Shown here: piece after piece, positions 6,722 to 50,126 of the stretch
Numbering within the stretch: the stretch's first letter is position 1
How the letters are laid out: every line of letters starts with the position of its first letter
Assembly: GCA_964454905.1 (NCBI GenBank)
Contig: CAYVTR010000002.1
Span: 6,803-70,802 of the forward strand
DNA: 64,000 bases
Reading direction: 5' to 3'
DNA from: an uncultured Woeseia sp.
GTDB taxonomy: Bacteria; Pseudomonadota; Gammaproteobacteria; Steroidobacterales; UBA11654
Program-made: the position numbers and the translations under genes
Notes under the pieces: generated by a model
What the model saw: only the letters and a program-made list of their open reading frames with translations
The model's database searches: none
What the model was told of the DNA's origin: nothing

Positions 6722-8230
6722 TTGACTGTGCTGGTAACCCTTTCAATATTAATACCTATGTTTGTTGCGCCCATGGCGACGAATCAATTACTCAATCAGG
6801 CCTATGAAATTGTTGCAAGCAATTTAGGTGCGGTCTATTTAGGAATGGGACTGTTGACACTACTGTTTCTGTTAACCCTAGCAATGAGTCGTTTCGGTAA
6901 TATCAAATTGGGTAAAAAAGATGAAGCACCTGAGTACGGAATCTTTGGTTGGTCCTCGATGTTGTTTTGTTGTGGTATAGGTGCTTCTTTGGTTTTATAT
7001 GGGACCACTGAATGGGTGGACTACTATCTAAAACCTCCCTTTGGAGCTGAACCAAAATCTAGTGAAGCGATCGCTTGGGCATCAACCTATGGAATGTTTC
7101 ATTGGGGCATTATTGGTTGGTCTATATATTGTCTTCCAGCGGTAGCCATTGGCTATAGTTATCACACCAGAAACTCAGGTAGTTTAAAAACGAGCACGGG
7201 TTGTGAAGCAATCTTAGGGAATCAAGGAAGCGGCAACCTAGCTAGATTAATAGATCTCGTTTACATGGTTGCACTTGTGGGAGTCTTGGGAGCCGGACTA
7301 GGTCTTACCTCTCCAGTAGTCAGTGCGACTATAACTGAATTCTTTTCAATCGAGCAAAATCTAATCATCACTGTTTCATGCCTCTTGGTTTGTATAGTTA
7401 TCTATTCAATCAGCCTTTATTTTGGTTTGGAAGAAGGCATTCAACGGCTCAGTAAATTCTGTGCCTATATGGCCTTTTTTGTATTGATATACATCTTAAT
7501 ATTTGGACCCACTCTCTTCTTAATAAAAAACTCTTATGAGAGTTTAGTTTTTATGGCCAAAAATTTTATCAGTATGAGTCTTGGTCCGCCACCAATAGGC
7601 AAGTCTGAGTTCTCAAAAGCATGGACAATATTTATGTGGGCATGGTTCTTTGGGTTGGGGCCATTTGTTGGCATCTTTATCGCAAGAATCTCTAGAGGCA
7701 GAACCATTCGTACAATGATACTTGGAACTCTAGGGTACGGAACAATGGGATGCTCATTATTTTTTATGATCATGGGCAATAATGCTATTTATCTTGAAAC
7801 CAATGGAATCATGCCTATCGTCGAGATTTGGAGCAATGAAAGTCCAGCCGTTATGGTCTCTCAAAGTATTTCTGGAATGGTCTTGGGTAAATGGATACTT
7901 CCTTTTGTGGGTGTTTTTTGTCTTGTCTTTATGGCCACAACTTTTGACTCAGGGGCTTATACACTAGCTTCATCGATCACTAAAAAAATGAGAGCTGGAG
8001 AAAATCCAGAAATCTGGAATAGAATATTCTGGGCATTCTTCATTGCCCTACTGCCACTAGCGCTACTAATAGGAGCTGCCGACTCTCCTGAATTACAAGG
8101 AATTGATAAATTAAGACCCTTTCAAACAATTGTGCTTTTAATCTCACCACCGCTGCTGATTGTGTATATAATCATGGCGATTGGATTAATGAAAAGTATT
8201 TTTGAAGACACAAAAACAGAGGATTTATGA
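6722..8230 (+). CDS. BCCT-family (betaine/carnitine/choline) transporter; candidate DMSP/betaine importer
   Basis: It has about 12 hydrophobic segments and the BCCT signature WTIFMWAWFFGLGPFVGIFIARISRGRTIR, plus RFGNIKLG. The start is TTG as given in the track and is uncertain. Confidence 0.85.
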   Translation: MTVLVTLSILIPMFVAPMATNQLLNQAYEIVASNLGAVYLGMGLLTLLFLLTLAMSRFGNIKLGKKDEAPEYGIFGWSSMLFCCGIGASLVLYGTTEWVDYYLKPPFGAEPKSSEAIAWASTYGMFHWGIIGWSIYCLPAVAIGYSYHTRNSGSLKTSTGCEAILGNQGSGNLARLIDLVYMVALVGVLGAGLGLTSPVVSATITEFFSIEQNLIITVSCLLVCIVIYSISLYFGLEEGIQRLSKFCAYMAFFVLIYILIFGPTLFLIKNSYESLVFMAKNFISMSLGPPPIGKSEFSKAWTIFMWAWFFGLGPFVGIFIARISRGRTIRTMILGTLGYGTMGCSLFFMIMGNNAIYLETNGIMPIVEIWSNESPAVMVSQSISGMVLGKWILPFVGVFCLVFMATTFDSGAYTLASSITKKMRAGENPEIWNRIFWAFFIALLPLALLIGAADSPELQGIDKLRPFQTIVLLISPPLLIVYIIMAIGLMKSIFEDTKTEDL

Positions 8231-9135
8231 TTACTAACATAAAAACCCTAGAACAAACTTTACAAGCTAATGAGTTTGCTATTACTGCAGAAATCCCGGC
8301 ACCCATTAGTGCCTCAGCTGCAGAGATGGAAGAAAAAATTGATTTATTAGCAGGTCATGTTCATGCCATCAATGTCACTGATAACCCTGGCGCAACTGCG
8401 CATATGTCAAGCCTTGCTGGTTGCAGCATTGTACGAAATAAAGGGATTGATCCTATTTTTCAGGTGACCTGTAGAGATCGAAACAGGTTAGCTATACAAA
8501 GTGATCTCATGGGAGCATCAGCTCTTGGTGTCAACAATGTTTTAACGTTGGCAGGTGATCCAGTAAAAAATGGGGATCACCCAGATGCAAAGGCTGTTTT
8601 TGATATCAACTCTAAAAAGATTTTATCAATAATGCAGTCAATGAATGATCTTGGCGAAACCATGTCAGGACGAGAACTACAAACCAAATCAAATTTTTTT
8701 CCAGGCGGTGCAGCCATTATCCATGAACCAGAAAATAATTGGAATCCAGTAACTCTCAAAGACAAAGTCGATCATGGGGCTAAATTTATACAAACTCAGT
8801 TTTGTTATGACGTTGATTTACTCAGAGAGTATATGAAACATATTGTTGATTCAGGTTTATCAGAAAAACTTTTCTTTATTATAGGCATCGGGCCTTTGAG
8901 AAGTGATAAATCAGCAAAATGGATGAGAGATAGGCTATTTGGAACCGTCATACCAGAAAGCATTGTTCAAAGGATGGAGCAGTCAGAAAATCAAATTGAG
9001 GAAGGCGTTGCTATTTGTGCTGAACTTATTAATCAATTTGAAGAAATTGATGGAGTCCATGGTGCCCACCTCATGGCCCCTAGAAATCTTTCTGCAATTG
9101 CACCAACTGTCAAACAGGCAGGGATAAAGATATAA
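8227..9135 (+). CDS. methylenetetrahydrofolate reductase, non-canonical (acetogen/actinobacterial-like MetF, COG0685)
   Basis: NVTDNPGATAHMSSLAGCSIV...FQVTCRDRNRLAIQSDLMGASALGVNNVLTLAGDPVKNGDHPDAKAVFDI is typical of this MetF subtype. The ATG overlaps the BCCT stop (ATGA). Confidence 0.75.
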   Translation: MITNIKTLEQTLQANEFAITAEIPAPISASAAEMEEKIDLLAGHVHAINVTDNPGATAHMSSLAGCSIVRNKGIDPIFQVTCRDRNRLAIQSDLMGASALGVNNVLTLAGDPVKNGDHPDAKAVFDINSKKILSIMQSMNDLGETMSGRELQTKSNFFPGGAAIIHEPENNWNPVTLKDKVDHGAKFIQTQFCYDVDLLREYMKHIVDSGLSEKLFFIIGIGPLRSDKSAKWMRDRLFGTVIPESIVQRMEQSENQIEEGVAICAELINQFEEIDGVHGAHLMAPRNLSAIAPTVKQAGIKI

Positions 9136-9142
9136 TTAGATT

Positions 9143-10435
9143 TTAAGATTTACTGTCCAAGAAATCTTTTAACCTATAAAACAGCATTCCTAATGACATT
9201 GCTGGACCAGAAAACCATTTACCGCCTGGTAATTGAATATGTTTCACACGAGACAATGTATCAATCATATCCCATTCATTACTTATCGCTGAAGCAATAA
9301 TCTTGGCTGCCATATGAGTGGGCCCTACTCCATGACCAGAATAGCCTTGAGAGTAAAAAATGTTCTCGGTTAGCCGCCCTAATTGGGGAATCCGATGAAT
9401 GGTAACGGCAACATTGCCAGCCCAAGCATAATCTATCCTTACATCATTAAGATCAGGAAATACATTTAACATCCGCTTTCTCAAATTTTGATCAATATTT
9501 TTAGGCTCAGCACCAGAATAATTCCATCGTCCCCCAAAAAGAAGCCTGTGATCGGGCGAAAGCCGATAGTAGTCCAAGATAGTATTTAAATCACAAACGG
9601 CCATATCACCAGAGATAAGTTGCTTTGCCCTCTCATTGCCTAAAGGTTCTGTGGCAATAATGCAGCTGTTTGCTGGCATAATCATCCGTCTTAGTTTTGG
9701 GTTTAATGTTCCAATATAGGCATTACCAGCTAACACTAGATGCTCAGTCTTTATAGACCCGTGTTCAGTTTCTATTAAAACCTCACTCCCTGGATTAATC
9801 TTTAATGCTTTTGTTTGCTCATAAATCGATACCCCAAGATCAGCTGCTGCCTTGGCTTCGCCCAAACATAGATTTAAAGGATGGAGATGACCACTTCCTG
9901 AATCAATCATACCTCCAATATAATTTGAAGAACCAACATAATTTTTTATTTGATTCTTGTCTACAAGAGTTAAATTATGCTGATAACCTCTTCGCTCCCA
10001 CTCCTCTTTTCTTATAATTAACTCATCCATTTGGGAATTATTTAGGGCTACCTCTATGAAGCCTTCCTTCAAATCGCATTGTATTCCAAATTCTTCTATG
10101 GTCTGCCTAACCAGATCAGTGCAATCTGCCCCCAGTTTCCAAACAGATTGAGCAATGTCGTCACCCCAACTTTCAAATTTATCACTAAAAGTAAAGCCAG
10201 AAATTAATTGTCCTCCATTCCGTCCACTTGCACCCCAACCTATTCTTGCAGCATCAATCAAAACCACCTCATATCCTTTTTTTGCAAGATTTATTGCTGT
10301 ATTCACTCCTGTAAACCCACCGCCGACAATACAAACTTCAGAGGAAATATTTTCTTTTAGTTCAGGGTAATTTTTAGAGTTATTTATAGTAGCTGCATAG
10401 TAAGAAGGAACATGCTCTATTTTTATGTTTTCCAT
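9143..10435 (-). CDS. FAD-dependent oxidoreductase, gamma-glutamylputrescine oxidase (PuuB)-like
   Basis: The N-terminus SYYAATINN...VCIVGGGFTGVNTAINLAKKGYEVVLIDAARIGWGASGRNGGQL resembles E. coli PuuB and shows a DAO-family dinucleotide fold. Confidence 0.75.
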   Translation of the reverse strand: MENIKIEHVPSYYAATINNSKNYPELKENISSEVCIVGGGFTGVNTAINLAKKGYEVVLIDAARIGWGASGRNGGQLISGFTFSDKFESWGDDIAQSVWKLGADCTDLVRQTIEEFGIQCDLKEGFIEVALNNSQMDELIIRKEEWERRGYQHNLTLVDKNQIKNYVGSSNYIGGMIDSGSGHLHPLNLCLGEAKAAADLGVSIYEQTKALKINPGSEVLIETEHGSIKTEHLVLAGNAYIGTLNPKLRRMIMPANSCIIATEPLGNERAKQLISGDMAVCDLNTILDYYRLSPDHRLLFGGRWNYSGAEPKNIDQNLRKRMLNVFPDLNDVRIDYAWAGNVAVTIHRIPQLGRLTENIFYSQGYSGHGVGPTHMAAKIIASAISNEWDMIDTLSRVKHIQLPGGKWFSGPAMSLGMLFYRLKDFLDSKS

Positions 10436-10519: not shown

Positions 10520-12064
10520 ATGGCCAGAAGAAGAACCAGAAGAAGTCAACAGACCCCTATTGACAATGAAGTCATTAAACCTGTTGTAGAAAAAGGAATG
10601 ATTGGTGGAAAGTTTAAGCCATTATCCGATCATGATATAGAACAAATTCATCAAACAACTTTGGATGTTTTAGAAAACATTGGGATGTCAAACCCCCTGC
10701 CCCAATTAAAGGAAATAGCACTTAAAAATGGGTGTACGTTTACGGACCAAGGTCGCCTTCTCTTTCCAAGATCATTGGTAGAGGACGTTATTGCTAGAGC
10801 AGGCAGAGATTTTGTTATGTATGGGAGAGACCCAAAAGATGATATAGACATGTCTGATCAAAAAGTTCATCTCTATGGTGGAGGAGAAGCGGTCACCATG
10901 CTTGACTTAGGCGCAAAAAAATACAGATCATCAACAATCAATGATGTGTACGACATTGCTAGATTGGTTGATTATCTTGAGCATGTTCATAGTTATTCCA
11001 GAGTGGTTGTGGCAACTGAGTTTAGCGACCTATTAAAAACAGATATCAACACGGCCTATGCAAGTGTTGTAGGGACAACGAAACACACTGCTTTGACTTT
11101 TGCTAGTGGGGAACACGTGAAACCAACAATTGAAATGCTGGACATGATTGCAGGTGGTGAAGGTAGGTTCTTAAAACGACCCTTCTGTCATGGCGGGGGA
11201 TGTACGGTAGTGTCCCCTCTTCGCTATGGAACAGATAATTGCGAAGTAGCTGTAGCCTCAATCGATTTCAATGCACCAATATGGGTTGTAATTGCGCCTC
11301 AATCTGGAGCAACTGCTCCGGCAGCATTAGCGGGCTCTCTAGTGCAGGTTCTAGCAGAAACATTGGCGAGCTTATTATTGATTGATCTTATAAAACCAGG
11401 TCATCCTGTAATTTTTGGTCCATGGCCTTTTGTCACAGACCTTAGAACCGGGTCCTTTTCAGGAGGCAGCGGTGAAGAAGCTTTGATGAGTGCAGCAGCT
11501 GCCCAGATTACCAATCATTATGGTCTGGCTAGCTCTGTCGGTGCTGGCATGACAGATTCAAAAAGTCCTGATGCACAAGCAGGTTATGAAAAAGGTATAA
11601 CTGTTGTAATGGCTGCGTTAGCTGGGTGTAACAATGTTTCTGAATCTTCTGGGATGATGGCAAGCCTTATGGGTTATTCATTTGAATCTCTGGTGATTGA
11701 TAATGAAATGCTCGGGATGGTTATGAGAACAGTTAGAGGTATTGAGGTCAATGAAGAAACTCTGTCCTATAGAGCAATAAAAGACACGGTAGAGGGAGAA
11801 GGTCATTTTCTAAGGGATCCTCAAACACTTTCATTAATGAAAACTGAATATCTATATCCAACTCTCGCTGACCGCAGTACCCAAGAAGAATGGGAAGCTG
11901 AAGGTTCGCCAGATATACGACAAAGAGCTGAAAAAAGAGCTAGAGAAATCTTGAATTCACACTATCCTGTCTACATTGATGATGCCACTGACAAAAAAGT
12001 AAGGGACACATTCCCTATCGAAATTTCTAGAGACGTTATTAAGCCTACCAAAGATCGATTCTAG
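10520..12064 (+). CDS. MttB-superfamily (trimethylamine methyltransferase family) methyltransferase, non-pyrrolysine, paralog 1
   Basis: The uninterrupted ORF has no in-frame TAG. Family-typical blocks are LDVLENIGM, FPRSLVED, GGC..VSPLR, APQSGATAPAALAGSLVQ, TDSK..DAQAGYEK and HFL..PQT. I moved the start to the ATG at 10520 (MARRRTRR). Confidence 0.85.
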   Translation: MARRRTRRSQQTPIDNEVIKPVVEKGMIGGKFKPLSDHDIEQIHQTTLDVLENIGMSNPLPQLKEIALKNGCTFTDQGRLLFPRSLVEDVIARAGRDFVMYGRDPKDDIDMSDQKVHLYGGGEAVTMLDLGAKKYRSSTINDVYDIARLVDYLEHVHSYSRVVVATEFSDLLKTDINTAYASVVGTTKHTALTFASGEHVKPTIEMLDMIAGGEGRFLKRPFCHGGGCTVVSPLRYGTDNCEVAVASIDFNAPIWVVIAPQSGATAPAALAGSLVQVLAETLASLLLIDLIKPGHPVIFGPWPFVTDLRTGSFSGGSGEEALMSAAAAQITNHYGLASSVGAGMTDSKSPDAQAGYEKGITVVMAALAGCNNVSESSGMMASLMGYSFESLVIDNEMLGMVMRTVRGIEVNEETLSYRAIKDTVEGEGHFLRDPQTLSLMKTEYLYPTLADRSTQEEWEAEGSPDIRQRAEKRAREILNSHYPVYIDDATDKKVRDTFPIEISRDVIKPTKDRF

Positions 12065-12069
12065 AGTTC

Positions 12070-13629
12070 ATGTCAGCTCAAAAGCGAAGAAGTGGTGGCA
12101 GCAAAGCTAGAAGGGCAATTCGCCAAGGTAAAGCAAAGAAAGCGGTTGTTCACCCTGGGCTTGAAACCGGTAACTACAAACCATTGAGTGAGCATGATAT
12201 TAAAAAAATACATGCTACGGCACTAGACGTTCTAGAAAATATTGGCATTAGTGATCCTATACCAGGAATTCTTAATCACACACTTGATAAAGGATGCATC
12301 CTAGGTGATGACAACCGACTAAAATTTCCTAGATCTTTAGTTGAAGATCTTTTAGATATTGCTCCTAAAGACCATCTTATGTATGCCATAAACCCCAAAT
12401 ATGATTATATGGTGTCTGGAAACAAAACTTACTTATCCACATCCGGTGAGCCAATTTCCATATTTGAATATGAATCTCAATCATTTCGTCCTACAACATT
12501 GGTGGATATTTATGATGCTGCAAGGCTTTGCGATCAATTAGAACATATTCATCAGTATGGACAACCCTTTGCAATAACAGAATATAGCCAAGACAAATTT
12601 ACTCATGATATTAATGCTGCTTATGCTGCTTTAGCTGGAACACAGAAAGGGATAGGGCTTGCTGTGGATAATGTTGAACATATTGATCCTCTAATTAATC
12701 TCTTCGACACTTTTCTTGGAGGAGAAGGAGAATATATAAAACGACCTTTCGCTGAAATTGGGGGATGCCCAATAGTTTCTCCTCTAAGGTTTGGAAAAGA
12801 TAATGCTGAAGTCATGGTTAAGTTGGCTGAGATGGGCCTTTACATTGGTGTCTGTACAGCTCCTCAGACCGGTACTACAGCGCCTGCTTCTTTGGCAGGG
12901 AGTCTCGTTCAATCATTTGCCGAAACCCTTGCCTGTCTTTGTGTGGTCAACCTCATTAAACCAGGGTCATATTGTGATTTTGAAATGTGGCCATTTATAT
13001 CTGATCTTAGAACAGGCGCGTTCACCGGTGGTAGTGGTGAGCAAGCCTTAATCATGGCAGCAACAGCTCAAATGTGTAATTTTTATGGGCTAGTTTCTAG
13101 CGTTGCATGCGGGATGACGGACTCAAAAACAATGGATGCACAAGCCGGCTACGAAAAAGCAATAACAACCACAGCCGCAATGCTTGCTGGAGGAAACATT
13201 GTTTCATCATATGCTGGAGCAGTTGGAAGCATAATGGGATGGTCATTTGAGGGAGCGATTATTGACAATGATATGTCTGGAAATATACAAAGGTTAGTGA
13301 AAGGCATTGAGGTTAATGATGAAACATTATCCTATGATGTTATCAATGACGTTGTCTATGGAGATGGACACTATCTCAAACATCCTCAAACAATTAACCT
13401 AATGGAGTCTGAATTTTTATACCCTAATTTAGCAAATAGACAAACCACACAAGAATGGGAAGAATCTGGAAAGCAAACCATTTATGACGCTGCACATCTA
13501 AGGTTAAAACAAATGATGAAGAATTATTATCCAGAATATATAAATAAAAAAATTGATGACAAAATAAGATCTGAATTTCCAATTCGACTAGAAAAAGAAA
13601 GGATGAAACCAAATCTTGACTGGAAATAG
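12070..13629 (+). CDS. MttB-superfamily methyltransferase, non-pyrrolysine, paralog 2
   Basis: It shares the same conserved blocks as paralog 1 and is about half identical to it by eye. It starts 5 nt after paralog 1 ends. Confidence 0.85.
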   Translation: MSAQKRRSGGSKARRAIRQGKAKKAVVHPGLETGNYKPLSEHDIKKIHATALDVLENIGISDPIPGILNHTLDKGCILGDDNRLKFPRSLVEDLLDIAPKDHLMYAINPKYDYMVSGNKTYLSTSGEPISIFEYESQSFRPTTLVDIYDAARLCDQLEHIHQYGQPFAITEYSQDKFTHDINAAYAALAGTQKGIGLAVDNVEHIDPLINLFDTFLGGEGEYIKRPFAEIGGCPIVSPLRFGKDNAEVMVKLAEMGLYIGVCTAPQTGTTAPASLAGSLVQSFAETLACLCVVNLIKPGSYCDFEMWPFISDLRTGAFTGGSGEQALIMAATAQMCNFYGLVSSVACGMTDSKTMDAQAGYEKAITTTAAMLAGGNIVSSYAGAVGSIMGWSFEGAIIDNDMSGNIQRLVKGIEVNDETLSYDVINDVVYGDGHYLKHPQTINLMESEFLYPNLANRQTTQEWEESGKQTIYDAAHLRLKQMMKNYYPEYINKKIDDKIRSEFPIRLEKERMKPNLDWK

Positions 13630-13724
13630 GTCTTTAATAAGATTATCATTCTACACAACACTGATTTGAACCAGATTGCAGGTGCCTAAATATTGCTAAA
13701 GCGGGGTTAAAATAAGATTTCGAT

Positions 13725-13760
13725 AAAACCTGTTTAGCAAAAGCTATCAGGTTTTTTTTT
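13725..13760 (+). terminator. intrinsic terminator or attenuator hairpin between mttB paralog 2 and metF
   Basis: AAAACCTG-TT-TAGC-AAAA-GCTA-T-CAGGTTTT forms an extended hairpin that runs into a T9 tract. The hairpin ends 14 nt before the metF ATG. Confidence 0.55.
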
Positions 13761-13773
13761 GGAAAAAGATTTT

Positions 13774-14619
13774 ATGATTAAGGACATTTCATTTGAGTTC
13801 TTTCCTCCAAGAACAGAGAAAATGGAGCAGAACCTAAAGCAAAACATAGGAAAGTTAATGGAACTATCTCCTAAATTTGTATCTATTACCTATGGTGCAG
13901 GAGGGACCACTCGAGATAAAACTCATAAAATCATCTCTAAGTTAATAAGTGAAACCGATCTCAATGTTGCTGCCCATTTAACCTGTGTCAATTCAAGTAT
14001 AAATGAAATTGATGAGGTTATAGAAAGCTACACCTCCATAGGGGTTAAACACATTGTTGCTCTTAGAGGTGATATGAAAGATTTAGGTCCATTTACCCCT
14101 CATCCTAAAGGTTTAAATAGTTCAATTGAGCTAGTCAGACATATTAAAGGCAAAAGCAACATAAAAGTTTCTATTAGCGGTTATCCTGAGCCACATCCAG
14201 AATCCCAAGGAATTTCGACAGATATTAACTTTATTAAATCTAAAATTGATGCTGGGGCTGATCAAATAATTACTCAATTTTCCTTTCAAGCTGAAAATTA
14301 TATTAAATATAGAGATACATTAGTTAACCAAGGCATTAATATACCGATTATTCCTGGGATTATGCTTATTAAGAGCTTTAAAGGAATAAAGAATATGAGT
14401 AATAAAGTTGGCATAAATGTACCAAATTGGGTTGATAAAACCATTGAAAGAGAAACAGAAGAAACTCAAAAAGTAATAGCTGAGGATTTTGCTAGAACCC
14501 AATCATCTGTATTAGAAAGCAATGGATTTGAGCAACTTCACTTTTATACCTTAAATGAATCTAAGATTATGAAAAACATTGCTAAACACCTAGGCTTTTA
14601 TAAAAAAAGTACTATATAA
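13774..14619 (+). CDS. metF: 5,10-methylenetetrahydrofolate reductase, canonical E. coli-type
   Basis: SFEFFPPRTEKMEQNL, SITYGAGGTTRDKTH, AAHLTCV, ALRGD and ITQF are classic MetF blocks. I chose the ATG at 13774 rather than the TTG at 13759. Confidence 0.85.
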   Translation: MIKDISFEFFPPRTEKMEQNLKQNIGKLMELSPKFVSITYGAGGTTRDKTHKIISKLISETDLNVAAHLTCVNSSINEIDEVIESYTSIGVKHIVALRGDMKDLGPFTPHPKGLNSSIELVRHIKGKSNIKVSISGYPEPHPESQGISTDINFIKSKIDAGADQIITQFSFQAENYIKYRDTLVNQGINIPIIPGIMLIKSFKGIKNMSNKVGINVPNWVDKTIERETEETQKVIAEDFARTQSSVLESNGFEQLHFYTLNESKIMKNIAKHLGFYKKSTI

Positions 14620-14635
14620 ATAAAAAAGAATAATC

Positions 14636-15679
14636 ATGATAACAATCGAATCTCAGATAAAAGAAAAAGGTTATCTACTAGCAGATGGTGCTACTGGAAC
14701 AAACTTATTTGACATGGGATTAGAGTCAGGTTATTCCCCGGAATTTTGGAATCTAGAATTCCCTGAGCGTGTAAAAGCTAACCATGAAAATTTTATACGT
14801 GCTGGATCAGACATTATCTTAACCAACTCGTTTGGAGCAAATAAATATAGACTGGCCCTTCATGATGCTGAAAACAAAGTAGAAGATTTAAATTTTGAGG
14901 CAGCGAGACTTGCAAAAGAATCAACTGATACATTTGAAAAACCTGTTTTTATCGCAGGCTCAATAGGCCCAACTGGTGAAATATTAGAACCATTAGGCAC
15001 ATTAACTAAAAAAGATGCTCAAGCAGCTTTTAAAAAACAGGCGTCAGCATTGAAAGACGGTGGTGCTGACCTACTATGGATTGAAACCATGTCCTCAGAA
15101 GAAGAAATGGAAGCCGCTTTATTAGGAGCCAAAGAGTCGTCATTACCCATCATTTGTTCTTATAGTTTTGATACTCATGGTAAATCCATGATGGGTCTAG
15201 AACCCTCACAGCTTGCAGAGCTTGCCAGAAAGTACTGTCCAGATGTTATTGGTTATGGAGCAAACTGTGGTATAGGGGCTTCTGAGTTAATTGGTTCTTT
15301 AATTTGCTTTAAAACCTCTAACAAGAATGAAGATCTGTTGCTTGTGGCTAAGGGTAATTGTGGTGTTCCTGAATTTAAGGGAGATGCCATAGTCTATAAT
15401 GGAACCCCGGAAATGATGGCAAAGTATGCTCGACACGCTAGAGATATGGGTGCATCTATTATAGGCGGATGCTGTGGCACCACCCATGTTCACATAAAGG
15501 AAATGTCAGAGGCATTACAATCGTATAAACCCTTAATAGAAAAAATAGATCTAGATTCTATTATTGAAGATTTGGGACCCATGACCGTTGGAAATAAGGA
15601 AATGATAAATAATTATCTCAACCCAGGCTCAACACAAACAAAAGCAACAAGAGAAAGAAAAAGAAAAAGAAGAAGATGA
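14636..15679 (+). CDS. homocysteine S-methyltransferase domain protein (stand-alone MetH Hcy-binding module; BHMT-like alternative)
   Basis: Supporting motifs are LLADGATGTNLF, ILTNSFGAN, GANCG and the GGCCGTTHVH zinc-ligand cysteines. The C-terminus is polybasic: TRERKRKRRR. Confidence 0.8.
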   Translation: MITIESQIKEKGYLLADGATGTNLFDMGLESGYSPEFWNLEFPERVKANHENFIRAGSDIILTNSFGANKYRLALHDAENKVEDLNFEAARLAKESTDTFEKPVFIAGSIGPTGEILEPLGTLTKKDAQAAFKKQASALKDGGADLLWIETMSSEEEMEAALLGAKESSLPIICSYSFDTHGKSMMGLEPSQLAELARKYCPDVIGYGANCGIGASELIGSLICFKTSNKNEDLLLVAKGNCGVPEFKGDAIVYNGTPEMMAKYARHARDMGASIIGGCCGTTHVHIKEMSEALQSYKPLIEKIDLDSIIEDLGPMTVGNKEMINNYLNPGSTQTKATRERKRKRRR

Positions 15680-15743
15680 ATGACTTTTGTAGCTAAAACG
15701 CTTGACCTGAAGTACTATATATTCGAAAAATTGGAGTTAGATA

Positions 15744-16430
15744 ATGCCAGAAGAATTTGATGATATTATACTTTCAGAACTCGATGATCAAGAACTCACA
15801 GAGCAGATGCATGAAGACCTCTATGATGGTTTAGCTGAAGAAATTGCTGAAGGAACGCAAATCTTATTAGATAGAGGATGGGAAGCAACTGAAGTATTAG
15901 ATAAAGCTCTAGTTGAGGGTATGGTCGTTGTGGGTGATGATTTCCGTGATGGAATTTTATTTGTCCCAGAGGTTTTATTGGCAGCCAATGCAATGAAAGC
16001 AGGCATGGCTTTATTGGAACCGATTCTGTCAGAATCTGGAGTAGAACCAATTGCCACAATGGTGATCGGAACTGTCAAGGGTGATATCCATGACATTGGC
16101 CAAAAACTGGTAGGAATGATGATGGAAGGCGCTGGCGTTGAAGTCTTCAATCTTGGCGTTAACACCGACGTCGATGAATACATTAATGCTCTTGAAGAAC
16201 ATAATGCAACAATTCTTGGAATGTCAGCATTGCTCACCACAACCATGCCCTATATGAAAGTAGTGGTTGATGAATTAAAAGCAAGAGGAATCAGAGACAA
16301 ATACATCATTATGGTTGGTGGCGCACCTTTGAACGATGAATTTGCTGAACACGTTGGAGCAGATGCTTATTGCATGGATGCTGGTAGCGCTGTAGAGACT
16401 ATGAAAAAGTTAGTTGCTGCTAACAATTAA
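15744..16430 (+). CDS. corrinoid (cobalamin-binding) protein with B12-binding cap and Rossmann domains
   Basis: Supporting motifs are DxHxxG (GDIHDIGQKLV), SALLTTTM and MVGGAPL. The N-terminal 37 aa are strongly acidic (15 D/E, no K/R). Confidence 0.85.
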   Translation: MPEEFDDIILSELDDQELTEQMHEDLYDGLAEEIAEGTQILLDRGWEATEVLDKALVEGMVVVGDDFRDGILFVPEVLLAANAMKAGMALLEPILSESGVEPIATMVIGTVKGDIHDIGQKLVGMMMEGAGVEVFNLGVNTDVDEYINALEEHNATILGMSALLTTTMPYMKVVVDELKARGIRDKYIIMVGGAPLNDEFAEHVGADAYCMDAGSAVETMKKLVAANN

Positions 16431-16432
16431 TA

Positions 16433-17023
16433 ATGACCGAAAAATTACTTATTATTGCTTGTGGGGCACTGGCATTCGAACTAAATCAACTAAAAAAACT
16501 CAACTCTTGGAATCATGTGAGTATCAAGTGTCTTGATGCAGAACTTCATAATACTCCTAAATTAATACCCGAGAAAGTCAGAGAAAAATATCTGACTTTG
16601 AAAGATGATTTCTCAAAGGTTTTTATCGCCTATGCTGATTGTGGTACAGGCGGATTACTAGATAATGTTCTAAAAGAATATGGTCTTGAAAGACTAGAGG
16701 GTGCCCATTGTTATGAGTTTTATTCAGGGCAAAGAAATTTTACTCATTTTACTGAACAAGAACTTGGCACATTTTACTTAACCGATTTTCTGGTCAAACA
16801 TTTCGAAAGATTGGTAATAGAAGGATTGGGTATGGATCAACATCCAGAATTAAAAAATGATTATTTCAAACATTATAAGAAAGTTATCTATTTAGCTCAG
16901 TCTAGATCAAAATCATTACAGCAAGATGCTAAAAAATATGCAGATTTTCTAGACTTAGATTACTCTTTTTATTACACAGGTTTAGATAATCTAGAATCGC
17001 AATTAAATCAGTCGGTTAACTAA
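16433..17023 (+). CDS. DUF1638-like protein (accessory protein of split corrinoid methyltransferase systems)
   Basis: LLIIACGALAFEL...AYADCGTGG fits DUF1638 as I recall it. The gene sits between the corrinoid protein and the pterin-binding gene. Confidence 0.6.
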   Translation: MTEKLLIIACGALAFELNQLKKLNSWNHVSIKCLDAELHNTPKLIPEKVREKYLTLKDDFSKVFIAYADCGTGGLLDNVLKEYGLERLEGAHCYEFYSGQRNFTHFTEQELGTFYLTDFLVKHFERLVIEGLGMDQHPELKNDYFKHYKKVIYLAQSRSKSLQQDAKKYADFLDLDYSFYYTGLDNLESQLNQSVN

Positions 17024-17322
17024 TGGGTAAAATGATTACAATTTATTGGAGAGATATTCCTTCACACGTGATCTATAAGCTCGGCAGAGAAAAATATAAA
17101 AAACAGCTTAACCCTAAATTCGAGACCGCTATTGATAGAGCCGCAATGAGAGCGGGTAAAGGCTCGAGTGATGCCTATATGTCAGAATGGCGGAGAGAAA
17201 CAGTTGCCATGCAAGGAAACCCTCAAGAGTTGGTAGATAACCTAGTGAATGAATTAGAAAATCAATTTACTGATGAGGTTCTTGAAAAAACGATTAAGGC
17301 CAAAGGAATAAAACCAAAATAG
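17023..17322 (+). CDS. small conserved protein (99 aa), possibly of the 'virulence factor' domain family seen beside split-MetH genes
   Basis: It is coupled to DUF1638 through a TAATG overlap. The family assignment is from memory only. Confidence 0.4.
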   Translation: MGKMITIYWRDIPSHVIYKLGREKYKKQLNPKFETAIDRAAMRAGKGSSDAYMSEWRRETVAMQGNPQELVDNLVNELENQFTDEVLEKTIKAKGIKPK

Positions 17323-17331
17323 GATTACATT

Positions 17332-18210
17332 ATGCCGCGAACAATTATAAGCTCCAATACAAAAGAAATCATTATTGATCCAGATCAACCATTCGTGATC
17401 ATTGGCGAGAGAATCAATCCAACAAATAGAAAATTGCTCGCAGCAGAAATGAAAGTAGGCAATCTTGAAAGAGTTGAACAAGATGCTATGAGCCAAATCA
17501 ATGCAGGCGCACAAATATTGGATGTTAATGCGGGAGTTCCATTAGCTGATGAACCAAAAATTTTGGCAGACTCAATTAAATTAATTCAGAGTATATCTGA
17601 TGTCCCACTGTGCATCGATTCTTCAATAGTCGAGGCCTTGAAGTGTGGTCTTGAAGCTTATCAAGGTAAAGCACTGTTGAACTCAGTAACTGGTGAAGAG
17701 GAACGATTAGAAACTGTTCTACCTTTAGTGAAACAATTTGGATGTGCTGTTATTGGAATATCTAACGATGATTCAGGTATATCTGAGGATATCAACGTTC
17801 GTTTTGAAGTTGCAAAAAAGATAGTTGAACGAGCCATGGATCATGGGATCCCCAAAGAAGATGTCATAATTGATCCTTTGGTTATGCCGATAGGTGCTAT
17901 CAATGATGCCGGAAAACAGGTTCTAGAGTTGATAAAGAAATTACAGAATGAATTACAAGTCAATACCACCTGTGGTGCTTCTAATTTAAGCTTTGGTCTC
18001 CCAAATCGACATGGATTAAACACAGCTTTTATTGCCATGGCAATAGCCAATGGTATGCCCTGTGCAATCACCAATCCATTAGAAAAAGAGATAATGCAAT
18101 CCATTAGAGGGGCAAATGTCGTTATGGGGCATGATCCTGAATGTTCTGATTGGATTATGCATTACCGAGAACCCAGAGAGAAAAGAAGCAGAAGAAAAAG
18201 AAGATCTTAG
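17332..18210 (+). CDS. pterin-binding domain protein; methyltetrahydrofolate:corrinoid methyltransferase (MetH pterin module / AcsE-MtrH-like)
   Basis: Supporting motifs are IIGERINPTNRK, LDVNAG, CIDSS, NSV and a DHPS-like TIM barrel pattern. The C-terminus is polybasic: REPREKRSRRKRRS. Confidence 0.8.
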   Translation: MPRTIISSNTKEIIIDPDQPFVIIGERINPTNRKLLAAEMKVGNLERVEQDAMSQINAGAQILDVNAGVPLADEPKILADSIKLIQSISDVPLCIDSSIVEALKCGLEAYQGKALLNSVTGEEERLETVLPLVKQFGCAVIGISNDDSGISEDINVRFEVAKKIVERAMDHGIPKEDVIIDPLVMPIGAINDAGKQVLELIKKLQNELQVNTTCGASNLSFGLPNRHGLNTAFIAMAIANGMPCAITNPLEKEIMQSIRGANVVMGHDPECSDWIMHYREPREKRSRRKRRS

Positions 18211-18221
18211 CTTCATATCCT

Positions 18222-20225
18222 ATGGCTCAGATGAATAAAAAAGAGTACAAAATTGCATTCATGCCATCAGGAAAGAGAGGCTCCTTTCCAGAGGGAACAA
18301 CTATTCTAGATGCCTCTAGAGCACTTGGTGTTGATTTAGATTCTGTTTGTGGGGGCAGAGCAATTTGTGGGCGTTGCCAGATAGAATTAACCGAAGGTAA
18401 ATTTGCAAAACATGGTATTGAATCCAAAGCAGATCATTTATCTGGGGTAACAAAGGCAGAAAAAAAATACGAAAAAAGAAAATCATTGGATAAAAAGCGA
18501 AGATTAGGCTGTCAATCAAAACTTCTTGGAAACGTGGTCATTGATATTCCTCCGGAAAGTCAGCTGCATCAACAAATAGTTCGTAAAGATTTTGAAGCCA
18601 CTGATATTTTCATCAATCCAATAACAAGACTCTACTATATTGACTCCAAAATCAATGCAGCCACAAATCTTGAAGAAGCAGTAAAAGAAAGACTGAGAAA
18701 TGACTGGTCTTTGAACATAGAGTCTATAAATTGTGCCTCAAAAACTCTTAGTGATGCCATCAAAGATTCTTCCCAGGGGTTTACGGTTGCGGTTAGAGAT
18801 CAGAAAAATTTGGTAGGGGTTTGGCCAGGGTTAATTGAAACCATTTACGGTACTGCAATTGACATTGGATCAACCACAATAGCAGTGAATTTATGTGACT
18901 TAAAAAATGGAAAAGTGCTCTCCAGTCAAGGATCGATGAATCCTCAGATAAGGTTCGGGGAAGATCTCATGAGCAGAGTTTCTTATTGCATGCAGAATCC
19001 TGGGTCTCAAACTGAACTGACAAAGGTGGTGCGTGAAGCGGTTAATGACCTTATAGCAAAAGCTTGTTCTGAGGCAAATATTGAAACTAGTTTGGTGATG
19101 GAGACTACAGTTGTTGGCAATCCAGTAATGCATCATCTGTTTCTTGGGTTTGATCCGGTCCCACTAGGTGTCGCACCTTTTAAGCTTGAAACTAGTGACG
19201 CGCTGACTCTTAAGGCTTCTGATTATGGGATGGATATTCATCCCCAAGCTGAAATTTATGTTCTGCCATGCCTAGCAGGGCATGTTGGAGCAGATGCTGC
19301 TGCTGTGATTCTCACCGAAAAACCCTATGATCAAAAGACAATGAATCTCATTGTGGATGTGGGAACCAATGCAGAAATAATTGTTGGCAATCAGGATCAA
19401 ATTTTAGCTGCCTCAAGTCCGACTGGCCCAGCTTTTGAGGGAGCTCAAATTAATTCGGGACAACGAGCCGCTCCGGGTGCAATAGAGAGAGTTAGAATTG
19501 ATCCATTAACCCTAGAAGCCCGTTTCAAAGTGATAGGTTCAGATTTATGGTCTGATGATCCTGATTTTAGTGAAAACATTGAATCAATTGGTATAACAGG
19601 GATCTGTGGATCTGGGATTATTGAAGCTGTGGCCGAAATGTACTTGTCCGGAATTATTTCTTCAGATGGATTAATGAATGAAGAAATGGCCAAAGAGAAT
19701 CAATATCTTTTTAAAAATGGCAGAACTTATTCCTACGTGCTCTATGAGGGTGAGCAGAAAATAATCGTTACACAAAATGATATCCGAGCAATACAACTAG
19801 CTAAAGCAGCATTGTATGCTGGTGCAAAATTGTTAATGGATAAATTAGCAATCAAGAAAATAGACAAAATCAGATTTGCTGGTGCTTTTGGAAGCCATAT
19901 TGATGTGAAATATGCGATGGTTTTAGGTCTTATACCTGATTGTGACCTAGATGAAGTAAGTTCAGCAGGGAATGCAGCGAGCACAGGTGCAAGAATGGCA
20001 CTTCTGGATACAAAAAGTAGAAATGAAATAGAAAAACAGGTGAAAAAGATAGAAAAAATAGAAACTGCCATAGAACCTCTATTTCAAGAATATTTTGTTG
20101 GCGCTATGTCGGTACCTCATAACACTGATCCTTTTAATGAGTTGAGTAAAATCATAAAATTGCCTGAAAAGAAAAAAGCAAAGACCAATAGAAAGAGAAG
20201 AAAAAAAAGAACATCTGATCTATAA
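18222..20225 (+). CDS. RACo-type reductive activator of corrinoid proteins (2Fe-2S ferredoxin domain + ASKHA ATPase, DUF4445/COG3894)
   Basis: The N-terminus has plant-type ferredoxin cysteines (CGGRAICGRCQIEL). ASKHA motifs are IDIGSTTIAV, VDVGTNAEI and GICGSGIIEA. I chose the ATG at 18222 to avoid overlapping the upstream gene. The C-terminus is polybasic: KKKAKTNRKRRKKRTSDL. Confidence 0.8.
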   Translation: MAQMNKKEYKIAFMPSGKRGSFPEGTTILDASRALGVDLDSVCGGRAICGRCQIELTEGKFAKHGIESKADHLSGVTKAEKKYEKRKSLDKKRRLGCQSKLLGNVVIDIPPESQLHQQIVRKDFEATDIFINPITRLYYIDSKINAATNLEEAVKERLRNDWSLNIESINCASKTLSDAIKDSSQGFTVAVRDQKNLVGVWPGLIETIYGTAIDIGSTTIAVNLCDLKNGKVLSSQGSMNPQIRFGEDLMSRVSYCMQNPGSQTELTKVVREAVNDLIAKACSEANIETSLVMETTVVGNPVMHHLFLGFDPVPLGVAPFKLETSDALTLKASDYGMDIHPQAEIYVLPCLAGHVGADAAAVILTEKPYDQKTMNLIVDVGTNAEIIVGNQDQILAASSPTGPAFEGAQINSGQRAAPGAIERVRIDPLTLEARFKVIGSDLWSDDPDFSENIESIGITGICGSGIIEAVAEMYLSGIISSDGLMNEEMAKENQYLFKNGRTYSYVLYEGEQKIIVTQNDIRAIQLAKAALYAGAKLLMDKLAIKKIDKIRFAGAFGSHIDVKYAMVLGLIPDCDLDEVSSAGNAASTGARMALLDTKSRNEIEKQVKKIEKIETAIEPLFQEYFVGAMSVPHNTDPFNELSKIIKLPEKKKAKTNRKRRKKRTSDL

Positions 20226-20305
20226 ATTACCTTGAATAAAATCTCTGCAGAATAAATAATTTTGTGATAAATTTCTGCCATCACTACCCTAAACTTTCTT
20301 CTATT

Positions 20306-21511
20306 ATGGAAAAACTAGAACAACTAATTAATAACCAGGTCAAAGACTGGTCTCTAGATCAAGAATTTTATAAAGACAAAGAAATTTATGATCTAGAGAT
20401 TGAGAAAATCTACATGAATTCTTGGCTATTGGCTGGACATGAATCTCAAATTCCAAACACAGGTGATTATTTTCTTTTCAATCTGTTATCAGAATCAGTA
20501 ATTATCATCAGAGGTAAAGATGGTGTGATCAGGGCCTTTATGAATGTTTGCAGGCACCGTGGCTCTCACATTTGCTTAGAAAGTCAAGGCAATGTGAAAC
20601 GATTGACATGCCCCTATCATGCATGGACTTATAACTTGGAAGGCGCTCTAGTGGCTGCTCAGAATTTGAGCAATAAAATAGATAAAGAAAATCTTAGTCT
20701 GCATAACTGCTCAATAGATGTTATTGAAGGGCTGATACTGATTAATTTTGCAGATAATCCTTCATCACTTGCGATGATGAAACAAGAATTATCAGAACCA
20801 ATGCAAATGTTCGGAATGAAAGATCTGAAAATAGCTGCGCATAGAAATTATTCTATTGAAGCCAACTGGAAACTCACAGTCGAAAATTACAATGAATGCT
20901 ATCATTGTGCTCCAGCTCATCCAGAATATGCAAAATCGCACAGCCTAAAATATGATGAATCGAGTAACGAATATCAATCAGCTCAAAAAGCAATGATGGA
21001 AACACTTGCTGCATGTGGTATGAAAGATTACGAGATTAACGCAGATTATGTCGATCGAATTGCATCACAAGAGCAATATGCCTATGGCCGCTATGCATTG
21101 TATGGTGGATACATTACTGGCAGTGAAGATGGCAAAGCCCTCGCTCCTCTGATAGGTGAAATCACTGAATATAATCCGGGTGCTTCTGACTTCTGTCTTG
21201 GTCCTGTTAGTTTCTTACTGGCCTACAGCGATCACGTGGTTGCCTATGTCTTTACTCCAGTTACTCATCAAACTAGTCAGTGTGACGTTTATTGGATGGT
21301 TGATAAAGACGCCAAAAAAGACAAAGACTATGATCTTGAACGTCTAATCTGGTTATGGGATGTCACCACTAAAGCAGATGAGAGAATCATTGAGAATAAT
21401 CAAAAGGGCGTTAACTCTAGAAAATATACTTCAGGGCCTTTTTCTGAGAAGGAATCAACAGAAAAACGATTTATCAGCTGGTATCTTGATCAGCTAAGAG
21501 AAACTTTATAG
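20306..21511 (+). CDS. Rieske [2Fe-2S] non-heme-iron oxygenase alpha subunit (GbcA/CntA/Stc2-like N-demethylase candidate)
   Basis: The Rieske motif is CRHRGSHIC...CPYHAWTY and the mononuclear iron motif is ENYNECYHCAPAHPEY. I chose the start at MEKLEQL. Confidence 0.8.
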   Translation: MEKLEQLINNQVKDWSLDQEFYKDKEIYDLEIEKIYMNSWLLAGHESQIPNTGDYFLFNLLSESVIIIRGKDGVIRAFMNVCRHRGSHICLESQGNVKRLTCPYHAWTYNLEGALVAAQNLSNKIDKENLSLHNCSIDVIEGLILINFADNPSSLAMMKQELSEPMQMFGMKDLKIAAHRNYSIEANWKLTVENYNECYHCAPAHPEYAKSHSLKYDESSNEYQSAQKAMMETLAACGMKDYEINADYVDRIASQEQYAYGRYALYGGYITGSEDGKALAPLIGEITEYNPGASDFCLGPVSFLLAYSDHVVAYVFTPVTHQTSQCDVYWMVDKDAKKDKDYDLERLIWLWDVTTKADERIIENNQKGVNSRKYTSGPFSEKESTEKRFISWYLDQLRETL

Positions 21512-49019: not shown

Positions 49020-50114
49020 ATGATGAAAATTTTTAAACTAACATTTTTAATACTTCTGATTGCTCAGGCATCGCATTCTGAGGGGGTTGTTAGTTTCTAT
49101 AATTGGGCCGATTATATTGGCGAGAATACGATTGAAAACTTTGAAGAAGAATATGGAATTAAGGTCAATTATGATACTTATGACTCCTCTGAAATTGTCG
49201 AAGCAAAGCTTTTAAGCGGTAATTCTGGATATGATCTCGTTATGCATTCAGCCATGTACTCCAAAAGATTAATGCCAGTTGGAATTTTTCATAAGATAGA
49301 TAAATCAAAAATAAAAAATTTCGAATTAATCAACCCTGAGCTCTTGAAAATGCTGAGTGTGTTCGATCCTGACAACAAAATGATGATTCCTTACAGCTAC
49401 GGATCCACAGGTATTAGCTATAATGAGGATATGATTCTTGAAAGATACCCCGATGCTCCTATCGGTAGTGGGGCCATGCTGTTTGATCCTGAAGTAGTCT
49501 CTAAATTTGCAGACTGTGGAATTAGTGTTCTAGACTCGCCAACCGATGTGGTGCCAACGGCTCTTATGTACTTAGGTTATCCCGATGATTCAAGAGATCC
49601 AACAGCACTCAGAGAAGCAGAAGATTTATTACTAGGAATCAGACCCTATATTAAAAAATTTACCTCGTCGACAATGCTTAATGATTTGCCAAACGGAGAC
49701 TTATGTATGGCCCAAAGTTGGGCGGGAGACTATGCCACAGCTAAAATGAGATCTGAGGAAGCTGGAAAAGAAATTAACCTTAAATACTTCGTGCCCTCAG
49801 AAGGCAGTCTAATGTGGTTGGACATCATGGTCATCCCCAATGATGCACCAAACCTAGAAAATGCCTATTTATTAATGGATTACTTGACGAGACCAGAAGT
49901 TAGTGCGGATTTTGTCAATCTAACACACTATGCCAGTCCTCTTCCATCTGCTGATAAATTCCTTAAAGATGGTGTCAGGGAAGATCCTGCAATATATCCG
50001 ACGCCTGAGATCATGAACCGTTTATCACTTACCCCAGTAGATCCACCAAATTACAATAGAATGAAAACCAGAATATTTACCAGATTCAAAACCAATCAAA
50101 AAAGAAAGCAATAA
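49020..50114 (+). CDS. periplasmic polyamine (spermidine/putrescine) ABC substrate-binding protein, PotD/PotF family
   Basis: It has a signal peptide, FYNWADYIGENTIENFEEEYGIKVNYDTY and typical PotF-family blocks. Confidence 0.8.
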   Translation: MMKIFKLTFLILLIAQASHSEGVVSFYNWADYIGENTIENFEEEYGIKVNYDTYDSSEIVEAKLLSGNSGYDLVMHSAMYSKRLMPVGIFHKIDKSKIKNFELINPELLKMLSVFDPDNKMMIPYSYGSTGISYNEDMILERYPDAPIGSGAMLFDPEVVSKFADCGISVLDSPTDVVPTALMYLGYPDDSRDPTALREAEDLLLGIRPYIKKFTSSTMLNDLPNGDLCMAQSWAGDYATAKMRSEEAGKEINLKYFVPSEGSLMWLDIMVIPNDAPNLENAYLLMDYLTRPEVSADFVNLTHYASPLPSADKFLKDGVREDPAIYPTPEIMNRLSLTPVDPPNYNRMKTRIFTRFKTNQKRKQ

Positions 50115-50126
50115 ACGAGAAAAAAT

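Follow-up and report, generated by a model that had tools for sequence, protein, structure and literature searches.

Gene Cluster and Its Identity

The stretch of DNA analysed here, 64,000 nucleotides from an uncultured Woeseia sp. (contig CAYVTR010000002.1) and referred to throughout as the window, contains a cluster of genes (Table 1) for a corrinoid carrier protein, MtgC, and for the separate enzymes that are predicted to dock on it and are here called its clients, namely two MttB-type methyltransferases, the homocysteine S-methyltransferase module MtgE, the pterin-binding methyltransferase MtgD, and the reductive activase RamA (also named RACo). Every client carries a polybasic tail at one of its termini and the carrier begins with a markedly acidic region; these charge-complementary termini, which are conserved in orthologous loci, are the subject of the present work.

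The architecture of the carrier as a stand-alone cap and B12-binding protein is confirmed by Pfam, and its translation contains GDIHDIG, which corresponds to the DxHxxG motif. Both MttB open reading frames (ORFs) are full-length, covering positions 5–490 and 1–491 of the 500 positions of the PF06253 profile, and contain no in-frame stop, so that they are of the non-pyrrolysine type. MtgD and MtgE are encoded by separate ORFs that align to the Fol and Hcy modules of MetH, respectively, and a ferredoxin-ASKHA activase (RamA-like) and DUF1638 are both recognised by Pfam. MtgC shares 66–73% identity with orthologues in Rhodobacterales, Rhizobiales, and other taxa and about 40–50% identity with anaerobe-type corrinoid proteins; percent identity places it in a proteobacterial/actinobacterial MtgC clade, apart from the cap-Cob part of MetH and from the MtgC of anaerobes, and its nearest homologues (at least 90% identity) are annotated as metagenome-assembled genomes of marine Gammaproteobacteria.

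To judge from its gene products, the cluster encodes a system known from earlier work, MtgBCDE/RamA/DUF1638, which serves as a split methionine synthase and glycine-betaine demethylase. [quoted passage not shown] The gene set of the window is the same, including MetF2 and the BCCT transporter, without any difference in gene content; what distinguishes the window is that it represents a gammaproteobacterial member in which all the parts, mtgE included, are located in one operon-like cluster. Upstream of its ATG at 18222, the RACo ORF stays open as far as a TTG at 18150, and this stretch (18150–18222) overlaps the MtgD tail in a different frame, in which the same purine tract reads REKKQKKKK; such an extension is probably untranslated, since no orthologue aligns ahead of the ATG.

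Table 1. Genes of the cluster and charged termini of their products (positions in the window).
Feature	Position	Strand	Assignment and remarks
Co-directional cluster	6.7–21.5 kb		BCCT transporter and MetF-like gene at one flank; divergent flavin adenine dinucleotide (FAD) oxidoreductase within
MttB paralogue 1 (MttB1)	10520..12064	+	MtgB-like predicted client; Pfam MTTB, E = 1e-103
MttB paralogue 2 (MttB2)	12070..13629	+	Pfam MTTB
MetF, methylene-tetrahydrofolate (THF) reductase	13759..14619	+	Pfam PF02219; without polybasic tail
MtgE, homocysteine S-methyltransferase module	14636..15679	+	Pfam PF02574, residues 14–294
MtgC, corrinoid carrier (cap + B12-binding)	15744..16430	+	PF02607, residues 20–92; PF02310, residues 106–215
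DUF1638	16433..17023	+	PF07796; tail-less, negative control
PF13769 ('Virulence_fact') small protein, 99 residues	17023..17322	+	Pfam; tail-less, negative control
MtgD, pterin-binding methyl-THF:corrinoid methyltransferase	17332..18210	+	Pfam PF00809
RACo/RamA-type reductive activase (2Fe-2S + ASKHA)	18222..20225	+	PF00111, PF17651, PF14574
Rieske oxygenase	20264..21511		Cluster end, after the activase
MttB1 N-terminus	10520–10552	+	MARRRTRRSQ
MttB2 N-terminal 26 residues	12070–12147	+	MSAQKRRSGGSKARRAIRQGKAKKAV; 10 Lys/Arg, no Asp/Glu; holds the RRSGG...R motif
MtgE C-terminus	15647–15679	+	TRERKRKRRR, then stop; linker from about residue 296, after the domain
MtgD C-terminus	18166–18210	+	REPREKRSRRKRRS, then stop
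RACo/RamA C-terminus	20169–20225	+	KKKAKTNRKRRKKRTSDL, then stop
MtgC N-terminal 37 residues	15744–15854	+	MPEEFDDIILSELDDQELTEQMHEDLYDGLAEEIAEG; 15 Asp/Glu, no Lys/Arg, net −15

Charged Termini in the Window

All six charged terminal sequences that the original prediction had quoted are found in the translations at their coordinates and with the residue counts claimed for them. The basicity of a terminus is expressed here as a tail score, the maximum number of Lys and Arg residues in any 10 consecutive positions of the terminal 30 residues, and was determined for both ends of the 53 ORFs of the window, giving 106 termini (5 predicted client termini and 101 others). The expected enrichment in the clients of the cluster is observed: a score of at least 5 is reached by 5/5 client termini and by 4/101 of the others (Fisher p = 1.2e-6), a score of at least 7 by 3/5 and 0/101, and the three client C-terminal tails score 8 each while every other terminus of the window scores 6 or less. 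One of the few non-cluster termini scored as polybasic belongs to an ORF on the reverse strand (41240–42829) that starts with MFQKRKTMTRKNKNIAIIGGG, probably an over-extended start ahead of a Rossmann GxGxxG motif.

The first 20 residues of MtgC have a net charge of −9 and constitute the most acidic N-terminus of the window, the runner-up being at −5. The whole protein has a net charge of −32 and an isoelectric point (pI) of 4.05, and outside the handle, as the N-terminal 37 residues are called here, the rest still accounts for −17. The cores of the clients, once their tails are subtracted, are acidic as well (net −14 to −24 in the window, with comparable acidity in the orthologues), and the tails contribute +5 to +10 to these proteins. 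The claim that the two MetF proteins, DUF1638, and the Rieske oxygenase lack basic tails is borne out, and the same holds for the PF13769 protein; the C-terminal 12 residues of MetF (13759–14619) have a net charge of +3 with no run of Lys/Arg. Net charges elsewhere in the window are −18 for the Rieske oxygenase, −10 for MetF_a, and −5 for DUF1638, and the PF13769 protein is basic with a pI of 9.4. DUF1638 had also been labelled as non-docking: its lack of a tail stands, but the label is doubtful because genetics ties DUF1638 to B12 reactivation (PMC5764234), and the protein may well dock on the carrier without a tail.

Conservation of the C-Terminal Tails

Proteins of the MtgC clade were collected by a 50%-representative search, in which several 'long' matches were over-called ORFs, and aligned, and 80 genomic loci were fetched with 10-kb flanks. 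These loci span Gamma-, Beta-, and Alphaproteobacteria, Acidimicrobiia/Actinomycetota, and Chloroflexota, and thus three phyla; orthologues were assigned by blastp of the window proteins against all stop-to-stop ORFs of the loci, and a C-terminus was considered polybasic when at least 5 Lys/Arg occur in 10 residues within the last 30. A polybasic C-terminus is present in 20/21 orthologues of MtgE (95%), 44/45 of MtgD (98%), and 43/45 of RamA (96%); all of them score at least 4, with a median of 6, and typical ends are ...RERRGRRRA (MtgE), ...RGRRGGRRRRRG, and ...GGRRRRRATA. In the same loci polybasic C-termini occur in 0/63 orthologues of DUF1638, 1/53 of PF13769 (2%), and 1/10 of MetF (10%). 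The frequency among the 691 other ORFs of the loci is 8.8%, a background inflated by many spurious Arg-rich ORFs of GC-rich DNA, so that the true contrast is larger. Among 48 recurrent neighbour families a high tail frequency is seen only in the client families, which is a coarse specificity check, as the single-linkage clustering of neighbour ORFs merged MtgD, RamA, and PF13769 and also generated off-frame shadow families.

Since they are conserved in orthologues of three phyla, the tails lie far beyond chance. The segment from the end of the domain to the tail measures 15–101 residues in MtgD, 26–52 in MtgE, and 15–47 in RamA and is rich in Arg, Ala, Gly, and Pro; such variable length and composition are the signature of a disordered linker followed by a charge patch. 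The tails contain 799 Arg and 82 Lys residues, with CGN codons in 739 of the Arg positions, and the GC content of the loci ranges from 38 to 72% with a median of 65%. The original prediction had itself cautioned that Lys/Arg-rich ends could reflect AT-rich purine tracts, and this caveat is removed by the use of CGN codons (739/799) in GC-rich genomes, which rules out a purine-tract or AT artefact. The CGN-encoded tails of GC-rich orthologues also rule out that the tail DNA serves the following gene for ribosome binding, a role further opposed by the 64-nt spacer that follows the MtgE tail. Mis-called starts were likewise rejected, because start calls have no bearing on the C-terminal tails and the starts of MttB are backed by orthologues and by the NCBI annotation of Sinorhizobium meliloti. 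These data support the view that, in each of the enzyme classes for which docking on the carrier is expected, the tail is conserved and under selection.

The same tail and handle pattern is present in the NCBI-annotated genes of S. meliloti pSymB (locus L161, 2212911–2237558), and this bacterium is a tractable model carrying it. Its MtgE, annotated as 'betaine--homocysteine S-methyltransferase (bmt)', ends with ...ARERRRRA, MtgD ends with ...GGRRGGRAARAGVARAE, and the ASKHA activase ends with ...GSGRRRRRSRE, while the MttB-family protein starts with MSDVTEQGAAEGGGRRARGEGRGAAARRASR and MtgC with MADDEIILEDLSDEELVQQMHDDLYDGLKEEIEEG. The S. meliloti cluster additionally has a ferredoxin, a formyl transferase, and a split MTHFR (methylene-THF reductase). 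The PF13769 ORF, located between DUF1638 and MtgD in the window, is kept there or nearby in 53/80 of the related loci and on S. meliloti pSymB.

Basic Termini of the MttB-Type Clients

The ATG of MttB1 at 10520 lies 9 nt downstream of AAGGA, and the orthologue in locus L024 starts with MRRGRQSRQ. A basic region is found directly ahead of the conserved core in 41/43 MttB homologues of the loci, and upstream of the core the motif RRxGGRxxRxAxR (R..GG..R) is recognisable in 24/43; counting full-length homologues, the basic N-terminal region is present in 34/41, three of those without it have C-terminal tails, and the remainder have a weaker motif or are truncated. The Pfam MTTB profile itself extends into the basic N-terminal region, and an MttB-like chain of S. 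meliloti (4YYC) aligns across the N-terminal extension, residue 22 of the chain corresponding to residue 8 of MttB2. A basic N-terminus of MttB, as originally described, is therefore present, but its description as a mere run of charge does not hold, given a conserved motif in about half of the copies. A twin-arginine translocation (Tat) signal peptide was considered for the MttB N-termini and discarded, because there is no h-region and MARRRTRRSQQTPIDNEV and ...RRAIRQGKAKKAVVHPGLETGNYKPLSE pass straight into the MTTB core.

Three divergent MttB paralogues (L038:12235-13755, L074:6272-7795, and L001:16802-18322) begin at the core (MRPxL...) and end with a linker rich in Pro and Ala and then GRRARAGRRRQR, GRRGRAGRRRSIS, or GGRRGRRGRRRRG; each of these loci has a second paralogue of MttB whose tail is N-terminal, as usual. 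The C-tailed subfamily occurs in Woeseiaceae and in other Gammaproteobacteria. The presence of the tail at the opposite terminus in one MttB subfamily fits a position-independent electrostatic element, and the need for a tail whichever end bears it argues against a role in the enzyme fold or in the active site.

Acidic N-Terminal Region of the Carrier

The acidic N-terminal region of MtgC is present in 80/80 orthologues, where the equivalent of residues 1–37 has a net charge of −9 to −20 with a median of −13.5. Positions L10, L13, L18, Q21, D25, Y27, G29, and E33 are invariant and I8, D15, E17, M22, H23, L26, L30, and I34 nearly so; residues 2–7 are acidic though variable. The AlphaFold2 model of MtgC, obtained with a 40-sequence alignment, has a mean predicted local distance difference test (pLDDT) value of 91.3, with values below 50 only at residues 1–4 and of about 96 at residues 11–40, and predicts a four-helix cap with helices at 15–27, 31–43, 48–68, and 74–98. 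Solved relatives (1Y80, MttC in 7XCN chain M, and 4JGI) begin at about residue 20 of MtgC. The earlier picture of a disordered acidic 'handle' has to be abandoned, as residues 8–37 form a strictly conserved motif that the model places in the ordered cap helices 1 and 2; according to this prediction, the handle consists of a short floppy acidic tip, a mostly ordered, clade-specific extension of 19 residues, and very acidic cap helices 1–2.

Co-Variation of Tails and Carrier

A second set of 80 metagenomic loci around anaerobe-type corrinoid proteins, which share 45–50% identity with MtgC, was used as an outgroup; the MtgC clade is presumed to be largely aerobic and the outgroup largely anaerobic. 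The anaerobe-type carriers have no extension, and in the region matching residues 1–37 of MtgC the median net charge is −1 (n = 80), compared with −13.5 in the MtgC clade, while the remainder of the carrier is similarly acidic in the two sets (−5 and −7, respectively); it is thus at the N-terminus that MtgC has its surplus of negative charge. On the client side, tail scores in the outgroup are 0–2 for RamA/RACo (n = 8, all ending at the domain), 1 and 3 for the two complete MtgE-like proteins, and 2–6 for MtgD-like proteins (n = 10), and the outgroup MttB proteins are mostly without an N-terminal extension. Most of the 80 anaerobe-type relatives are without both features. A group of intermediate loci (L098, L106, L118, L124, and L142) has a carrier with a mildly acidic 'LYxGE' helix 1 (net −1 to −5) and no N-terminal extension; short Lys/Arg ends of the YKKRLK type are found on MtgD in 5/5 of these loci and of the MAKKRRGP type on MttB in L098, L106, and L118, the three loci with a scored copy. 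This intermediate group may represent the evolutionary stage from which the full pair of tail and handle arose.

Over both sets the N-terminal charge of the carrier correlates with the tail score of the clients, with Spearman rho values of −0.76 for MtgD, −0.64 for RamA, −0.51 for MtgE, and −0.46 for MttB; within the MtgC clade rho is −0.48 for MtgD (p = 8e-4) and −0.28 for RamA (p = 0.06). The proposed co-occurrence of the tails with an acidic carrier is hence strong between clades and weak within the clade, in an analysis with no phylogenetic correction. Natural single-chain fusions of cap-B12 with MttB, Hcy, pterin, or URO-D modules (P0224, P0249, P0246, P0223, P0218, P0155, P0196, and P0237) have neither poly-Arg nor an acidic extension at the junction. 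This is weak evidence, because the fusions belong to outgroup corrinoid clades.

Genomic Surroundings

The flanks of the cluster (6722–10435 and 20264–21511) encode the BCCT transporter, a second MetF-like protein, the FAD oxidoreductase, and the Rieske oxygenase, and elsewhere in the window a PotF-like ABC uptake system (49020–52959) and a second Rieske-type ORF (61662–62774) are located. The flanking and distant genes together suggest a broader neighbourhood of quaternary-amine or polyamine catabolism.

Comparison with MetH, Docking Domains, and Anaerobic Systems

The Hcy, Fol, Cap, and Cob modules of MetH are homologous to proteins of the window. In MetH these modules alternate in access to one cobalamin and the same is expected here; however, they are covalently linked in MetH, whereas in the window they are distributed over three ORFs that are separated by stops and intergenic DNA. 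The AdoMet (S-adenosylmethionine) reactivation domain PF02965 was not found by Pfam in the cluster, which has a RamA-type activase instead. Residues 11–281 of MtgD align to residues 361–652 of human MetH and residue 20 of MtgC aligns to residue 673; on these alignment boundaries (652/673), the MtgD tail (282–292) together with residues 1–19 of MtgC occupies the place of the Fol-to-Cap linker of MetH. Where MetH has this linker, the split system has a free polybasic C-terminal tail and a free acidic N-terminus, of opposite charge.

Terminal elements that replace a covalent link are familiar from the docking domains of modular polyketide synthases and non-ribosomal peptide synthetases and from charged disordered tails that act by 'fly-casting' or electrostatic steering. 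Such docking elements join the C-terminal end of one module to the N-terminal end of the next, and their composition is kept rather than their sequence. In contrast to these assembly lines, many clients would here share one acidic receptor, apparently an ordered helical surface, and in place of folded docking helices the tails are nearly pure Arg/Gly runs.

The anaerobic systems MttB-MttC, MtaB-MtaC, Desulfitobacterium hafniense MtgB/MtgC, and AcsE-CoFeSP-RACo are made up of homologous families and likewise have a separate carrier that docks on TIM-barrel methyltransferases. They differ from the window at the termini: AcsE/MeTr (2E7F, 2YCK) ends at the domain without a basic tail, the RACo of Carboxydothermus hydrogenoformans (3ZYY) ends 9 residues past the last aligned position, at the domain, and D. 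hafniense MtgB (9YCE) begins at residue 35 of MttB2, without the N-terminal extension. In the solved MttB-MttC complex the main contacts are made by the cap domain, and the N-terminal extension of MtaC docks in a groove of the MtaB methyltransferase (PMC9842639); these contacts provide a precedent for a role of the cap and N-terminus of MtgC in partner recognition.

Proposed Electrostatic Recruitment to the Carrier and Alternative Explanations

The features described above exist, are conserved and client-specific, co-vary between clades, and do not depend on position, and order is predicted for the cap helices. The composition and charge of the tails appear to be kept while their length, sequence, and terminus vary, as disordered electrostatic docking predicts. 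The explanation that we favour, and to which we assign about an even chance, is that the Arg-rich tails electrostatically recruit the clients to the acidic N-terminal cap region of MtgC and act as a non-covalent stand-in for the linkers of MetH. One small carrier would shuttle methyl-cobalamin between the separate enzymes MtgB (two copies), MtgD, MtgE, and RamA; the clients of this clade would have gained short disordered Arg/Lys tails, C-terminal on MtgD, MtgE, and RamA and N-terminal on the MttB-type clients or C-terminal in one of their subfamilies, and the carrier would have gained the 19-residue N-terminal extension and the very acidic surface of cap helices 1–2. The tails would exert a long-range attraction drawing the acidic, mutually repelling client cores to the MtgC cap, raising encounter rates and keeping the carrier close to its clients, and the MtgD tail with the MtgC N-terminus would substitute non-covalently for the Fol-to-Cap linker. 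From the same pattern we infer that the tails would bind MtgC rather than another polyanion, speeding turnover, and that engagement of the cap may help uncapping or protect cob(I)alamin in aerobes.

Several observations weigh against this recruitment model. Some outgroup MtgD proteins have 5–6 terminal Lys/Arg although their corrinoid protein has no extension, and within the MtgC clade the MtgE tails do not track the charge of the handle (rho 0.02) and those of RamA do so weakly (rho −0.28, p = 0.06). The correlations ignore shared ancestry and the between-clade signal amounts to two or three evolutionary events, so that the co-variation is supportive and not conclusive; the outgroup samples are also small (8 for RamA and 2 for MtgE). 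DUF1638, tied to B12 reactivation (PMC5764234), has no tail. The acidic region is predicted to be ordered with strictly conserved hydrophobic positions, and its conservation may serve the function of the cap and not the binding of tails.

Poly-Arg tails bind any polyanion, and the putative contact between tail and MtgC is predicted from a pattern of sequence; both points count against recruitment to the carrier, and the second also leaves room for an explanation that we regard as unlikely. In it, some general cellular polyanion, whether RNA or ribosomes, DNA, polyphosphate, or acidic membrane, would be the target of the tails and would bring the enzymes of the pathway together, perhaps within a condensate or close to the BCCT transporter, and MtgC would be acidic independently of the tails. 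Arg/Gly-rich tails such as GRRGGRRRR do resemble RGG-type nucleic-acid-binding segments, and their sequence and length vary. A general polyanion nevertheless fails to explain the localised acidic region gained in the same clade by the carrier, the sole tail-less component, as well as the tail-less DUF1638, PF13769, and MetF of the same operon, and the tails have none of the hydrophobic or aromatic residues typical of membrane anchors. It is quite improbable that the tails act in cis, either compensating acidic cores for solubility or pI or folding back as an autoinhibitory or regulatory element with no shared partner. The charges of the client cores (−14 to −24 in the window, similar in orthologues), to which the tails add +5 to +10, would suit such compensation, but the outgroup cores are equally acidic and yet mostly tail-less, other acidic neighbours (Rieske −18, MetF_a −10) have no tail, and the switch of the MttB tail between termini is hard to square with a specific fold-back site.

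A different shared partner (DUF1638, the PF13769 protein, a B12-loading factor, or another acidic face of MtgC) has only a slim chance of being what the tails address. DUF1638 and PF13769 are recurrent, with 67 and 53 blastp-assigned ORFs in the 80 loci, and MtgC is acidic beyond the handle too (−17 in the window). Against such a partner, PF13769 is basic (pI 9.4) and DUF1638 only mildly acidic (−5) in the window, and the clade-specific change of charge is confined to the N-terminal 37 residues of MtgC. There remains next to no probability for a chance, compositional, or annotation artefact caused by purine-rich AT tracts, Shine-Dalgarno-like DNA, or mis-called starts and stops: the tails of the window are indeed runs of AGA, AAA, and AAG, and the same tract in another frame gives KKQKKKK, but orthologues at 60–72% GC retain tails with CGN codons, the stop codons are unambiguous, the NCBI-annotated genes of S. 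meliloti share these ends, and the enrichment in the window has a Fisher p of 1e-6.

Beyond recruitment as such, a bolder version can be put forward tentatively and with rather low confidence, namely that poly-arginine is a portable 'address tag' by which, in the presumably aerobic MtgC clade, any enzyme with a disordered terminal Arg tail, at either end, is recruited to the acidic cap helices of the sole cobalamin carrier. If true, such a tag would replace the linkers of MetH and allow new methyl-donor enzymes to be connected to that carrier, and it would couple recruitment to uncapping and limit the exposure of oxygen-sensitive cob(I)alamin.

Novelty and Significance

Neither the terminal basic tails nor the acidic N-terminus of the carrier is mentioned in PMC12478193, PMC5764234, PMC9842639, PMC13080624, or bioRxiv 10.64898/2025.12.19.695462, and a keyword search of the literature, whose coverage excluded subscription journals, found nothing on this feature. 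The gene system is already known, and its charge-complementary termini appear to be an undescribed, conserved feature of it.

In marine and soil bacteria, MtgBCDE has lately come to be recognised as a major route by which glycine betaine is demethylated and methionine is made. If the recruitment of clients by their tails is true, it would provide a concrete mechanism for the sharing of one free carrier among at least four separate enzymes in oxygenated cells; the tail would be a sequence signature that could flag new MtgC clients in genomes, and a possible design principle for engineered split B12 enzymes. Even if the tails bind something else, their strict conservation across three phyla still calls for an explanation.

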